A stretch of 64,000 bases of DNA from Escherichia phage YUEEL01: sequence record NC_054935.2, one strand, 5' to 3'. The notes beneath the pieces were generated by a model that saw nothing but the letters and a program-made list of their open reading frames with translations, did no database searches and was not told where the DNA came from. Made by a program: the position numbers and the translations under genes. The number at the start of each line of letters is the position of its first letter. Position 1 is the first letter of the stretch. This document shows positions 2,134-55,178 of this stretch, one piece after another.

Positions 2134-3093
2134 ATGATTACCGTAAATGAAAAAGAACACATTCTTGAACAGAAATATCGTCCATCTACTATCGATGAAT
2201 GTATTCTTCCCGCCTTTGATAAAGAAACCTTTAAATCTATTACAAGTAAAGGTAAGATTCCACATATTATTCTTCATTCTCCTTCTCCAGGAACAGGTAA
2301 AACAACTGTAGCAAAAGCATTGTGTCATGATGTAAATGCTGATATGATGTTTGTGAATGGTTCAGATTGTAAAATTGATTTCGTTCGTGGTCCTTTGACT
2401 AATTTTGCCAGCGCCGCTTCATTTGATGGTCGTCAAAAAGTAATCGTTATTGATGAATTTGACCGTTCAGGTTTAGCAGAATCTCAGCGACATCTTCGTT
2501 CCTTTATGGAAGCTTATAGTTCAAACTGTAGTATTATTATTACTGCTAACAATATTGATGGTATTATTAAACCACTTCAGTCACGCTGCCGAGTTATTAC
2601 GTTCGGTCAACCGACCGATGAAGATAAAATTGAAATGATGAAGCAGATGATTCGTCGATTGACTGAAATCTGTAAGCATGAAGGAATTGCTATAGCTGAT
2701 ATGAAAGTTGTAGCAGCTTTGGTTAAAAAGAATTTTCCTGATTTTCGTAAAACTATTGGCGAGCTCGATAGTTATTCATCTAAAGGTGTTTTGGATGCTG
2801 GTATTTTATCACTGGTTACTAACGATCGTGGTGCTATTGATGATGTTCTTGAGTCTCTCAAAAATAAAGATGTTAAACAACTCAGAGCTTTAGCACCAAA
2901 ATATGCAGCTGATTATTCGTGGTTCGTTGGTAAACTTGCCGAAGAAATCTATTCACGTGTAACTCCGCAGAGTATTATTCGTATGTACGAAATTGTAGGC
3001 GAAAATAATCAGTATCATGGTATTGCAGCTAATACTGAATTGCATTTAGCTTATCTTTTCATTCAATTAGCATGCGAAATGCAGTGGAAGTGA
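2134..3093 (+). CDS. 44: gp44 clamp loader large subunit (AAA+)
   Basis: 319 aa from ATG after GAGGAA SD; Walker A SPGTGKTT; T4 gp44 N-terminus MITVNEKEH. Confidence 0.9.
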
Positions 3094-7142: not shown

Positions 7143-7172
7143 GTTTACAAGAATGTTCTTCCATGGTACTAT
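7143..7172 (+). promoter_or_regulatory. T4-type early promoter
   Basis: GTTTAC, 18 bp spacer, TACTAT; palindromic spacer AAGAATGTTCTT. Confidence 0.6.
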
Positions 7173-34042: not shown

Positions 34043-34532
34043 CTTGACTAGCGAAATGAAGGTCAAAATTGCTGATACTGCAAGATACTCTTTAAAACAA
34101 AACCCGAACCAGGATAAAGCAGAAGTTATTGAAAGATGTCGTATTGCTGTATACGCAGAGTTTTTTGTAGCAGATTGGCTAAGCGGGTATGTTAATAAAG
34201 GTCAAGAAGATGTCGATGATCCATATACATACGCGTGGGATGTTTTAGCACATCCAAAATACTGTGGGCTTCGTGTAGAAGTTAAGACACATCAAACTGG
34301 CTCACGTTGGATTTCTGTAACAACAGGATGCAGCGGAGAGTATCCATACGGTTCTGGAATAAATCTAGGGCCCATTCTAAATCATCAAGTCGCTGACTGT
34401 ATAATTATATTCAACACTAAAGAAATTCATCCAGGTGTTATCCAGTACACTCCGAAGTTCATCGGTGACAGAGAAGACCTTCGTAAGGTTGTAAGAAAAA
34501 GCAACTACAATGGATGGTATCTTTCCATTTAA
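33975..34532 (+). CDS. denB: DenB endonuclease IV (dC-specific)
   Basis: 185 aa, position after rIIB. Confidence 0.65.
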   Translation: MQKTNPGLQRLFQIPTFTLSNSDLTSEMKVKIADTARYSLKQNPNQDKAEVIERCRIAVYAEFFVADWLSGYVNKGQEDVDDPYTYAWDVLAHPKYCGLRVEVKTHQTGSRWISVTTGCSGEYPYGSGINLGPILNHQVADCIIIFNTKEIHPGVIQYTPKFIGDREDLRKVVRKSNYNGWYLSI

Positions 34533-34550
34533 AAAAATTTTCACAAAACA

Positions 34551-34580
34551 GTTTACATACCACAAGGACCGTGGTACTAT
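34551..34580 (+). promoter_or_regulatory. T4-type early promoter
   Basis: GTTTAC, 18 bp, TACTAT. Confidence 0.6.
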
Positions 34581-34607
34581 ACAACTATCAGCTACGGAGG
34601 AGTAAAA

Positions 34608-34871
34608 ATGAAATTTAAATTTTATTACGCTAAACATAAAATTACCGGTGAATTTATTGCATTTACGACTTCAACTACAGATGAAGGAGATATTTTTACT
34701 GCAGTATTTTTATCAAAATGGGAATCAGATCAACCTTACTTATCATCACGTGAAGATCTCCAACGATTAGTTAATGGAGAATATAATGATTCATGGTCAT
34801 ATTTAGTCCATGATTGTGTTAAAAAGGCAATAAAACAAAAACACTTGGAAATCGTTGAGATTGAACTATGA
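34608..34871 (+). CDS. hypothetical protein
   Basis: 87-aa ORF. Confidence 0.4.
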   Translation: MKFKFYYAKHKITGEFIAFTTSTTDEGDIFTAVFLSKWESDQPYLSSREDLQRLVNGEYNDSWSYLVHDCVKKAIKQKHLEIVEIEL

Positions 34872-34954
34872 GTTCATTATGTTGGTGTTTTGTTTGGTTA
34901 ATTAGTATTCCAGTAATTTGTTTAACATTTACTTTTGTGATGAGGTTATTATGA
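34868..34954 (+). CDS. tiny hydrophobic peptide
   Basis: 28 codons, ATGA coupling. Confidence 0.25.
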   Translation: MSSLCWCFVWLISIPVICLTFTFVMRLL

Positions 34955-35049
34955 AAATTTTGAATTCTGTACTTATTGCGTGTGCATGGTGGGTTGCACA
35001 AGTTTCGGCAGTAGTGATTGGTATTCACATTTATTACGAATATTTTTAA
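34951..35049 (+). CDS. tiny hydrophobic peptide
   Basis: 32 codons, ATGA coupling. Confidence 0.25.
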   Translation: MKILNSVLIACAWWVAQVSAVVIGIHIYYEYF

Positions 35050-35056
35050 AAAAGTT

Positions 35057-35086
35057 GTTTACAAGACTGTTCTTCCGTGGTACTAT
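35057..35086 (+). promoter_or_regulatory. T4-type early promoter
   Basis: GTTTAC, 18 bp, TACTAT. Confidence 0.6.
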
Positions 35087-35114
35087 TACCCTATCAACTA
35101 CGGAGGAACAGAAA

Positions 35115-35228
35115 ATGAAAAAGATTGTTAAAGCTATATGGAATGTAGTTATAATACTAATAGTTTTGAGTATATTCCCAATCGTTTTAATGATTGATGT
35201 ATTAAACGTTTACTTTGGATTTATGTGA
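35115..35228 (+). CDS. small single-pass membrane peptide
   Basis: 37 codons after SD GGAGGAA. Confidence 0.35.
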   Translation: MKKIVKAIWNVVIILIVLSIFPIVLMIDVLNVYFGFM

Positions 35229-35235
35229 GGAAAAT

Positions 35236-35433
35236 ATGAAGCGTAAACGCAGTGCTTTTACATTTATTGAATGGTTTTTCGATAATATTTTTCCGGCTTT
35301 ATTCATTTTCATGCTGATTTTTGCCTTAGGTTCAGTTGTAGTTGGAATTTATTTGATGACGGTAGTCGGAATGGATATTCATCAAAATGGTTTAAAATCC
35401 GTGGTTGAAACAATTTGGAATGGTGTAAAATGA
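35236..35433 (+). CDS. small membrane protein
   Basis: 65 codons after SD GAGGAAAA. Confidence 0.4.
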   Translation: MKRKRSAFTFIEWFFDNIFPALFIFMLIFALGSVVVGIYLMTVVGMDIHQNGLKSVVETIWNGVK

Positions 35434-35540
35434 TGAATTTGCTGAGTGGTTGGTTTTATATTCTTATGTTTTACATTGGCGCAAATTTTCCATATTGGAT
35501 GGGATGGTCAACAACTGCATTTGGATTTTATACTCCTTGA
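35430..35540 (+). CDS. tiny hydrophobic aromatic-rich peptide
   Basis: 36 codons. Confidence 0.25.
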   Translation: MMNLLSGWFYILMFYIGANFPYWMGWSTTAFGFYTP

Positions 35541-35548
35541 GGTGAATT

Positions 35549-35764
35549 ATGAAAATCTTTAAAGATGTAAAAGTTGGTGAAATTTTTTGCTTGGATAGTG
35601 GTGATCAGTTAATTCGTATTTCACCTCTTAAGAGCACCAGCGAGAAAATGACAGTTAACGCTACTTTAGCAAATAACAGTAATGAACGTTTCTGTATTGA
35701 AAATGATACTGAAACTTATACCGTAGAAGAGTTTTGGGAATTGAGCGTCGACTGCGACGATTAA
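35549..35764 (+). CDS. small hypothetical protein
   Basis: 71-aa ORF. Confidence 0.4.
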   Translation: MKIFKDVKVGEIFCLDSGDQLIRISPLKSTSEKMTVNATLANNSNERFCIENDTETYTVEEFWELSVDCDD

Positions 35765-35824
35765 TTTAATGGCCGCGTGTATTCATGCGGCCTTGGAGTA
35801 GAAAATAATTTAGAGGAAATTAAT

Positions 35825-36283
35825 ATGAAATACATGACTGTTACTGATCTGAATAATGCAGGCGCTACTGTTATTGGCACAATCAAGGGCGGTGAATGGT
35901 TTTTGGGAACTCCGCATAAAGATATTTTATCTAAACCTGGATTTTACTTTTTAGTGAGTAAATTAGATGGTCGTCCATTTAGTAATCCGTGCGTGTCCGC
36001 ACGATTTTATGTAGGTAATCAGCGTTCTAAGCAAGGATTCAGTGCGGTTCTAAGTCATATTCGTCAGCGTCGGTCTCAGCTTGCGCGTACTATTGCAAAT
36101 AACAATGTTCCATACACAGTATTTTATCTTCCTGCTTCTAAGATGAAACCTCTGACGACAGGATTTGATAAAGGTCAGTTAGCGTTGGCGTTTACTCGTA
36201 ATCATCATTCTGAGTATCAAACACTTGAAGAAATGAACCGTATGTTGGCTGATAACTTTAAATTTGTTTTGCAGGCATATTAA
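35825..36283 (+). CDS. ndd: Ndd nucleoid disruption protein
   Basis: 152 aa from MKYMTVTDL; matches recalled T4 Ndd. Confidence 0.85.
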
Positions 36284-36369
36284 TGAGTAATTTCCATAAC
36301 GAACATGTGATGCAGTTCTATCGTAACAATCTTAAAAACTTTGGTATTTTAGGTTCTAAAAATAGTTGA
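36283..36369 (+). CDS. stp: Stp peptide (modulator of host PrrC/EcoprrI)
   Basis: 28 codons [18 protein letters not shown]...; N-terminus matches recalled T4 Stp. Confidence 0.7.
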
Positions 36370-36379
36370 GGAGAATATT

Positions 36380-36538
36380 ATGAATATCGCAAAATTATTA
36401 GGAGTTATTTCATTTATTTGTTGGATAGTAGCATGTGTTTTAACTATCTGTATCGATGCTAGCAGTGTGTTTTCACAAGCTTTAGCCCAGGGTATGTGTG
36501 CATATTTAACATTTGTGTTGTTATCTACTAATGATTAA
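36380..36538 (+). CDS. ac: small membrane protein (ac-like by position)
   Basis: 52-aa hydrophobic ORF between stp and 52. Confidence 0.4.
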   Translation: MNIAKLLGVISFICWIVACVLTICIDASSVFSQALAQGMCAYLTFVLLSTND

Positions 36539-36671
36539 GAAAATCTTGGGCTATTCATTAGCCCTTGCTACTTTATTAGTAGCACTATATTATGGAGTAA
36601 TGTTCGGATTAATTCAAGTCGTGCTTTTCATTTCTGATGTTATTATGGCACTACATTCACTAGTATGGTAA
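36531..36671 (+). CDS. small membrane protein
   Basis: 46-aa hydrophobic ORF. Confidence 0.3.
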   Translation: MIKKILGYSLALATLLVALYYGVMFGLIQVVLFISDVIMALHSLVW

Positions 36672-38206: not shown

Positions 38207-38236
38207 GTTTACAACCAAAGCATACTGTGGTACTAT
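38207..38236 (+). promoter_or_regulatory. T4-type early promoter
   Basis: GTTTAC, 18 bp, TACTAT. Confidence 0.6.
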
Positions 38237-55148: not shown

Positions 55149-55178
55149 GTTTACATCCCTGTTCTTCTATGGTACTAT
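55149..55178 (+). promoter_or_regulatory. T4-type early promoter
   Basis: GTTTAC, 18 bp, TACTAT. Confidence 0.6.

Follow-up and report, generated by a model that had tools for sequence, protein, structure and literature searches.

Between denB and ndd in the genome of Escherichia phage YUEEL01 (sequence record NC_054935.2, of which 64,000 nucleotides, read 5' to 3' on one strand, make up the window analysed here) lies a train of six tiny open reading frames (ORFs, 34868-35764) which, on comparative sequence evidence, are genuine genes under purifying selection, arranged for translational coupling and, in five cases, predicted to encode hydrophobic membrane peptides. They are the ndd.6 to ndd.1 genes of phage T4, already known and annotated as genes of unknown function, and what follows is a re-discovery rather than the description of a new system. 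We lean towards reading the ndd.x products as accessory, immediate-early micro-proteins of the host inner membrane that would bind specific membrane targets.

The window is T4-type phage DNA as judged by its matches: positions 34500-35900 share 100% DNA identity with Escherichia phage vB_EcoM_C2-3 and have megablast-level matches in 496 T4-like phage records. The six frames, which have the lengths first described for them (28, 32, 37, 65, 36 and 71 codons) and lie where they were first placed, correspond to T4 ndd.6, ndd.5, ndd.4, ndd.3 plus ndd.2a (here one 65-codon gene), ndd.2 and ndd.1. Genes, order, strand (+) and early promoter are those of T4, amino-acid identity is 96-98% for all six, and the DNA also aligns to T4, represented by GenBank AF158101 (the reference) and KJ477684 (T4 'wild'); order and strand between denB (endonuclease IV) and ndd likewise agree with annotated vB_EcoM_C2-3. 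In annotated T4 the interval runs ndd.6, ndd.5, ndd.4, ndd.3, ndd.2a, ndd.2, ndd.1, followed by ndd, stp, ac, 52.1 and gene 52. This phage differs from T4 in keeping a further gene, orf87, of which T4 has 8 codons, and an intact 65-codon ndd.2a, which is split in the T4 reference. Each ORF has one PHROG match (E 1e-17 to 1e-37; Table 1), and the Pfam families of the T4 gene set are PF26889, PF23906/DUF7248 and PF26909, with PF26889 and PF26909 precomputed on homologues. Statements on the identity of ndd.6 to ndd.1, and at the level of the gene, are close to certain. The T4 products are listed as unknown (PMC6071114); the labels 'naphthalene 1,2-dioxygenase', 'outer membrane protein' and 'periplasmic protein' carried by many GenBank records are propagated misannotations, without support from any Pfam profile.

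Conservation of the reading frames across related phages had been set beforehand as a test of the proposal, which it did not refute: the frames are kept in several genera and vary as coding sequence does under purifying selection. In an alignment of the window with 18 other Tequatrovirus copies (19 in all, DNA identity 94-98%), the pooled pairwise ratio of non-synonymous to synonymous substitution (dN/dS) in the annotated frame was 0.13 for ndd.6, 0.08 for ndd.5, 0.08 for ndd.2a, 0.12 for ndd.2 and 0.08 for ndd.1, against values of at least 0.9, or undefined, in the other two frames of the same five ORFs. Polymorphic sites across these five frames, ndd.4 being set apart, fell 18/14/71 at codon positions 1/2/3 (71 of 103 at the third position; chi-square about 59), and 1/2/10 in ndd.5. 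All indels among the 19 copies are intergenic except three singletons, namely 2 nt gained at the 3' end of ndd.6 in an IMG/VR contig (near 2120), 5 nt gained in ECO4 ndd.2 (near 1579) and a 44-nt duplication in fFiEco06 ndd.1 (locus 1679-1938); the T2 record MH751506 carries a stop at codon 45 of ndd.2a (locus 1588-1722). Such singleton disruptions may be real pseudogenes or sequencing errors. For ndd.4, comparison between genera gives a dN/dS of 0.1-0.17 at saturated synonymous divergence, and five phages drawn from several T4-like genera all have 16 of its 37 residues in common.

Three annotations are corrected by the same comparison. In the T4 reference AF158101 (locus 769-965) a single G is missing from codon 2 of the 65-codon frame, which is intact in KJ477684 (2008-2205) and in the window and is read through in the other 17 Tequatrovirus copies, apart from the T2 point stop; 'ndd.3' is thus an artefact read out of frame, and 'ndd.2a' a piece of the single gene begun at an internal ATG. 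The product of that gene matches DUF7248 with an E-value of 8e-20 (71 bits, cut-off 27). At ndd.2, four of the 19 copies have ATA in place of the first ATG (35430) and all keep the second (35433), which is thus the conserved start. Finally, Ndd.1 is an acidic, soluble protein of SH3-like small-barrel type, not a membrane peptide.

The remaining five products are predicted to be hydrophobic membrane peptides; a single span is clear in four of them, the fifth being Ndd.2. Their grand average of hydropathy (GRAVY) is 0.58-1.90, phenylalanine, tryptophan and tyrosine make up 14-34% of residues, and lysine and arginine together number 0-6. Uninterrupted apolar stretches reach 25 residues in Ndd.6, whose single charge is an arginine near the C-terminus, 17 in Ndd.4 and 29 in Ndd.2a; the last combines a basic N-terminus (MKRKR) with a single transmembrane helix, and its C-terminal tail, NGLKSVVETIWNG, is conserved. 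Ndd.5 is hydrophobic overall (2.18 over a 19-residue window); Ndd.2 is weaker (1.17 over 19 residues), has no charged residue, is 34% aromatic, and is probably interfacial. Lysine and arginine at the N-termini of Ndd.5, Ndd.4 and Ndd.2a predict an N-in/C-out orientation by the positive-inside rule. The initial picture of hydrophobic, aromatic-rich membrane peptides is supported as a prediction for these products and fails for Ndd.1, which has a GRAVY of -0.38 and no single span.

The genes are also placed so as to be translated together. ATGA overlaps join orf87 to ndd.6 and ndd.6 to ndd.5, an ATGATG overlap joins ndd.2a to ndd.2, and spacers of 7 nt (ndd.4 to ndd.2a) and 8 nt (ndd.2 to ndd.1) each have a GAGG ribosome-binding site covering the upstream stop; the 65-nt gap between ndd.5 and ndd.4 holds an internal promoter. 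Of the junctions named in the preliminary description, ATGA is present at ndd.6/ndd.5, and TAATG is absent from the window, occurring only as the variant ndd.2 start of 4 of the 19 copies; the train itself begins one gene earlier than described, at orf87. In T4 and RB6 this gene is absent and an 8-codon in-frame remnant, MKI(A/V)EIEL (codons 1-2 and the last six codons), is left (at about 1617-1643 of the T4 locus and 931-957 of the RB6 locus), which keeps the Shine-Dalgarno (SD) sequence and the ATGA overlap onto ndd.6. Retention of both despite the loss of orf87 suggests that coupling is under selection and, as the SD of ndd.6 itself is weak, the simplest reading would be that ribosomes finishing the upstream frame go on to translate ndd.6. 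In RB6 and T2 an unrelated 68-codon gene replaces orf87, and one VR5-like phage keeps the orf87/ndd.6 overlap with a TTG start.

Transcription of the group can be placed with the extended T4 early-promoter motif GTTTAC-N15-TGGTAYTAT, which has 16 matches in the window, all on the + strand, against 0.31 expected. Two of these head the two coupled groups (Table 1), the second being the internal early promoter already noticed from the sequence, and the flanks of both align with four other copies in the window over about 60 nt. No motif lies between ndd.1 and ndd, and the next after 35057 is not met before 38207, from which the transcript starting at 35057 probably runs on into ndd, stp and ac. 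The proximity to these genes first remarked upon is that of one early block.

By homologue searches, each peptide forms a conserved family of its own that is scattered unevenly over T4-like genera. These searches drew on GenBank phage records and on a second IMG/VR scan with an alignment of Ndd.4, the first IMG/VR scan, with the Ndd protein alone, having returned only 5 near-identical loci. The upstream gene orf87, with the same ATGA overlap, occurs in JS98, JS09, YenM_P8 and VR5-like phages. Ndd.6 occurs also in Dhakavirus, Mosigvirus and VR5-like phages, always directly 3' of orf87 with an overlapping start, and its homologues in Dhakavirus and Mosigvirus keep MSS..W...W..IP.IC..F. For Ndd.5, tblastn gave full-length matches in 491 phage records, almost all of which carry the names of coliphage-type T-even phages. 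Ndd.4, present in 594 phage records that include Dhakavirus, VR5/VR7-like phages, Kanagawavirus and Mosugukvirus, is the most widely conserved member; its fixed features are IFP(I/V)V, ID and a mid-helix proline with flanking asparagine or aspartate, and in Pectobacterium phage PM2 it is the sole gene between denB and ndd. The basic N-terminus, single helix and extramembrane NGLKSV..IWNG tail of Ndd.2a are kept in Yersinia phage YenM_P8, a VR5-like phage and Edwardsiella phage PEi26. Ndd.2 is present in 516 phage records, 25 of them named as Klebsiella phages, and its homologues in PEi26 and in 175-kb phages, where they lie directly 3' of ndd.4, keep G.N.(P/A)YW(M/L)G. Ndd.1 is widespread. Homologue searches, including one with an Ndd.4 alignment headed by the 40-amino-acid JS98 form and an exhaustive HMMER search with Ndd.2a, found no relatives outside T4-like phages; the latter returned only 7 cluster representatives, and its matches to long proteins are hydrophobic or repeat matches, not relatives.

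Natural variants add detail to this gene-by-gene presence and absence, which also includes natural deletions and one fusion. A 62-amino-acid protein of Shigella phage Sf25 joins residues 1-31 of Ndd.4 in frame to residues 35-65 of Ndd.2a and matches both Pfam families, an arrangement that fits C-termini of Ndd.4 and Ndd.2a lying on the same side of the membrane. In Shigella phage ESH35 (an UNVERIFIED record, 2747-3026) ndd.4 is followed directly by ac, with ndd.2a, ndd.2, ndd.1, ndd and stp all missing. The Ndd.2a tail, NGLKSVVETIWNGVK (35385-35430), and the N-terminus of Ndd.4, KKIVKAIWNVV (35115-35150), each resemble one 11-residue W-N-G-I-K repeat unit of an 820-amino-acid tape-measure-like protein, a likeness that is probably convergence on an amphipathic, tryptophan-containing helix. 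In Kanagawavirus (PEi26 2762-2899) and in 175-kb relatives (2760-2885) the ndd.2-like gene is followed by a 41-45-amino-acid ORF with two Cys-x-x-Cys-like pairs, resembling a small zinc-ribbon protein, which is not present in the window.

How such peptides might serve the phage can be set out as a sequence of steps. Host sigma-70 RNA polymerase would transcribe the block within the first minutes of infection from the promoters at 34551 and 35057, and ribosomes would read two coupled trains, orf87-ndd.6-ndd.5 through ATGA overlaps and ndd.4 (from its own GGAGG)-ndd.2a-ndd.2-ndd.1 through overlaps or 7-8-nt spacers. The five products, of 28-65 residues, would insert into the host inner membrane, where each may bind, by helix-helix contacts, a particular membrane protein encoded by the host, by a prophage or plasmid resident in it, or by the infecting phage. 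Binding could then alter envelope physiology or block membrane-based exclusion or defence, with a benefit on some hosts or under some conditions only. The residues fixed across genera, the gain and loss of individual genes, and their dispensability on laboratory Escherichia coli are what lead us to infer specific partners and a payoff limited by host or condition: conservation falls on specific residues (IFP(I/V)V and ID in Ndd.4, IP.IC in Ndd.6, PYW.G in Ndd.2, NGLKSV..IWNG in Ndd.2a) and not on hydrophobicity alone, which fits such partners better than generic membrane damage. A narrower proposal, held tentatively and on balance doubtful, is that at least one micro-protein specifically inhibits a conserved enterobacterial inner-membrane protein, be it a membrane-anchored defence or exclusion effector or an envelope enzyme; Ndd.4 would be the leading candidate, given its retention in several T4-like genera. 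If true, such inhibitors would constitute a class, phage 'transmembrane-helix anti-defence peptides', overlooked by standard screens through their size and host-specific benefit.

Published work on T4 reports early expression and dispensability. All ndd.x RNAs belong to the early class by RNA-seq, and Ndd.1 alone was detected as protein, early (PMC9697503 supplement). Knockdown with dCas13d by CRISPRi-ART scored every one of the seven annotated ndd.x genes as 'Not Fit', meaning no fitness defect (PMC11879866 supplement), and HIDEN-SEQ classed all of them as non-essential, with transposon insertions tolerated (18 of 18 sites hit in ndd.4; bioRxiv 10.1101/2025.11.20.689424 supplement). The 3.4-kb deletion saΔ9, which removes 52.1, ac, stp, ndd, ndd.1 to ndd.6 and denB, is viable and produces phage at about half the wild-type rate (PMC6071114). 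Searches of the literature found no ribosome-profiling study of T4 infection, no superinfection-exclusion experiment on ndd.x, nothing for ndd.2a or DUF7248, and nothing about these genes among work on small membrane proteins.

Several observations weigh against the view of the ndd.x products as inner-membrane micro-proteins with specific targets. The five peptides went undetected by mass spectrometry in T4 (PMC9697503 supplement), short hydrophobic peptides being hard to detect; and searches of Pfam, NCBIfam, PDB and Rfam provide no partner, phenotype or homologue of known function. HIDEN-SEQ hits with RexAB, RnlAB, CBASS, DarTG1, DarTG2 and minimal medium include no ndd.x gene (bioRxiv 10.1101/2025.11.20.689424), and in one comparison table that accompanies it log2 changes for ndd.x are near zero with q = 1 (bioRxiv 10.1101/2025.11.20.689424 supplement). 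The four singleton disruptions, in T2 ndd.2a, ECO4 ndd.2, fFiEco06 ndd.1 and the IMG/VR copy of ndd.6, mean that loss is tolerated. Within Tequatrovirus, ndd.4 shows seven variable sites, almost no synonymous change and a dN/dS of 1.35, a ratio that carries no weight with so few sites. Six of these sites are at first or second positions, all but one of the changes conservative, and one third-position site varies in 37 codons where about 11 would be expected from the neighbouring genes (Poisson P about 1.5e-4); protein-level selection alone does not account for this synonymous deficit. Possible causes are recent recombinational homogenisation beside the promoter cassette, or constraint at the RNA level, although mRNA structure in particular draws little support from a predicted hairpin over the ndd.4 ribosome-binding site and ORF (z -2.3 against shuffles).

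A first alternative is that the frames encode no functional protein, being either hydrophobic ORFs that an AT-rich genome throws up by chance or spacers translated simply to hand ribosomes over to ndd. It would draw on the ease with which T-rich codons yield hydrophobic random ORFs, on the five of six products missed by mass spectrometry, on the dispensability of all the genes, and on one genuine spacer, the 8-codon orf87 remnant of T4 and RB6. That remnant, absent from the window, is the only element here that fits a leader peptide or translated spacer. The peptides themselves have amino-acid sequences under purifying selection, with a dN/dS near 0.1 in the annotated frame only, motifs kept across genera at saturated synonymous divergence, indels that avoid the frames and full-length copies in 491-594 phage records, and we regard this alternative, which the selection analysis contradicts, as scarcely credible. 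It is less far-fetched, though still improbable, that the peptides are membrane-damaging toxins, acting by ion leak or depolarisation in the manner of type I toxins or holins and aiding host shut-off without a partner. Small hydrophobic peptides of the Hok/TisB/Ibs type can depolarise membranes, and the ndd.x helices are short, very hydrophobic, early and adjacent to the host-shutoff genes ndd, stp and ac. Their spans, however, offer almost no polar or charged residues with which to line a pore, there is no holin-type charged C-terminal tail, the neighbours are denB and ndd with no adjoining endolysin, and their removal costs nothing in laboratory infections. Early in infection phage T4 still needs an energised membrane, yet expression from these early promoters begins at the start of infection, and the position-specific conservation seen across genera exceeds what a generic membrane-perturbing peptide would need. 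Neither the sequence nor the literature gave evidence for the ion leak, transport inhibition or blocking of defence sensors by ndd.x that the preliminary description had entertained.

Two further alternatives would give the peptides a defined role. Of these we consider unlikely, rather than implausible, that they are small membrane subunits or anchors for early functions that the phage itself carries out at the inner membrane, for instance those of RIIA/RIIB, Ac and 52.1, or of Ndd in its ascribed role of attaching DNA to the membrane. One early block extends from rIIB/denB to ndd/stp/ac/52.1 and encodes several membrane-associated phage proteins, ndd.4 stays beside ndd even as the sole gene of the interval (PM2), and the pairs orf87/ndd.6 and ndd.4/ndd.2 recur across genera; but synteny among T4-like phages is generally conserved, which makes adjacency a weak guide, individual peptides are gained and lost independently of ndd, rII and ac, and the HIDEN-SEQ comparison with RexAB highlights depletion of rIIA and rIIB only (bioRxiv 10.1101/2025.11.20.689424). 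The other derives from saΔ9, which virtually abolishes the post-infection rise in phosphatidylglycerol synthesis (PMC6071114): at least one peptide might drive this stimulation, for instance through a membrane-bound phospholipid enzyme, as the deletion removes ndd.1 to ndd.6 and its authors count several predicted membrane proteins among the products lost (PMC6071114). A mutant that lacks only dCTPase, denB (endonuclease IV) and alc, however, loses the stimulation in the same way, which points to denB or alc (PMC6071114); moreover, the mapping is no finer than 3.4 kb and Pfam and NCBIfam give ndd.x no likeness to proteins of lipid metabolism. This last role we think decidedly improbable.

Comparison with described small proteins helps to place the ndd.x micro-proteins as we favour reading them. 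Within T4, Ac (52 amino acids here), gp52.1 (46 amino acids), Imm and Sp are likewise short, hydrophobic, non-essential early products, Ac and gp52.1 being similar in composition; Ac, Imm and Sp have envelope-linked phenotypes (acridine sensitivity, superinfection exclusion). None of the four, however, shares a Pfam family with ndd.x at E up to 1. In design alone the peptides would recall bacterial AcrZ, MgtS, MgrB, KdpF and CydX, which are of about 30-65 amino acids with one hydrophobic helix and few charges at the ends, and bind larger membrane proteins; by contrast, the ndd.x peptides are phage-encoded, found only in T4-like phages and not homologous to these, Pfam and NCBIfam giving no match at E up to 1 besides DUF7248. 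Hok, TisB, Ibs and the phage T holin are also short hydrophobic peptides of the inner membrane, from which ndd.x differ in their early promoter and the lack of a charged tail; a search of both strands of 34400-36400 against Rfam returned no antisense RNA family, although an undescribed antisense RNA would escape such a search.

Table 1. Features of the denB-ndd interval of Escherichia phage YUEEL01 and its flanks (positions are those of the window)
Feature	Position	Strand	Remarks
Early promoter before orf87	34551..34580	+	exact GTTTAC-N15-TGGTAYTAT; heads group orf87, ndd.6, ndd.5
orf87, 87 codons, soluble	34608..34871	+	phrog_2390; RB69 ORF270c / JS98 orf262 type; head of train
ndd.6, 28 aa, hydrophobic, MSSLCWCFVWLISIPVICLTFTFVMRLL	34868..34954 (stop included)	+	96% identity to T4 Ndd.6; phrog_8851
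ndd.5, 32 aa, hydrophobic, GAGG SD	34951..35049 (stop included)	+	97% identity to T4 Ndd.5; phrog_5011
Internal early promoter	35057..35086	+	exact GTTTAC-N15-TGGTAYTAT; heads group ndd.4, ndd.2a, ndd.2, ndd.1
ndd.4, 37 aa, predicted single-pass N-in/C-out, strong GGAGG SD	35115..35228 (stop included)	+	phrog_3098; PF26889 precomputed on homologues
ndd.2a full length (ndd.3/ndd.2a), 65 aa	35236..35433 (stop included)	+	Pfam DUF7248; phrog_2401
ndd.2, 35 aa from ATG 35433 (36 aa from ATG 35430)	35433..35540	+	phrog_4135
ndd.1, 71 aa, acidic, soluble	35549..35764 (stop included)	+	final gene of coupled group; phrog_2183
Hairpin, 9 bp, GC-rich, stable	35771..35792	+	between ndd.1 and ndd; no U-run after
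ndd (nucleoid disruption protein)	35825..36283	+	next gene 3' of ndd.1
stp, 28 aa	36283-36369	+	
ac, 52 aa, hydrophobic	36380-36538	+	
52.1, 46 aa, hydrophobic	36531-36671	+	

Some features of the flanks deserve mention alongside the genes themselves (Table 1), the run of small membrane ORFs going on beyond ndd with ac and 52.1. The early promoters belong to a cassette of about 60 nt (TTTTCACAAAAC.GTTTACA ... TGGTACTATACAACTATCAAC) common to 7143-7172, 34551-34580, 35057-35086, 38207-38236 and 55149-55178, and the 40 nt from the -10 region to the SD of the 34551 promoter are repeated at 35075-35114 with 80% identity. In T4 the orf87 remnant is preceded by the leader found here 3' of the 7143 copy, which suggests that the T4 arrangement at orf87 was produced by cassette-mediated recombination. 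A 67-nt match to promoter and leader in a seemingly unrelated phage, at first taken as transfer, came from a partial Tequatrovirus assembly and a paralogous early promoter. Two orf87 alleles with only about 55% protein identity occur in Tequatrovirus phages whose adjacent ndd.6 is 93-100% identical, which marks a recombination boundary at the orf87/ndd.6 junction; a single-sequence AlphaFold model of the 87-residue product had a predicted local distance difference test score (pLDDT) of 52 and was unusable. Between ndd.1 and ndd, the fold of 35760-35826 (-19.4 kcal/mol, z -3.9) contains a hairpin that the promoter and terminator scan did not list as a terminator and that lacks the canonical form of one; it may be an mRNA-stability or processing element.

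The ndd.x ORFs have been annotated in T4 for some thirty years with no function assigned to them, and peptides of 28-37 residues are a class missed by proteomics and by many annotation pipelines. For this group the analysis supplies comparative proof of coding together with its corrections: that ndd.3 and ndd.2a are one gene, that ndd.2 starts at its second ATG, and that Ndd.1 is soluble. Ndd.4 and the orf87/Ndd.6 pair offer the best experimental entry points and, if a target were found, their products would join the small number of phage micro-proteins known to act within the membrane.

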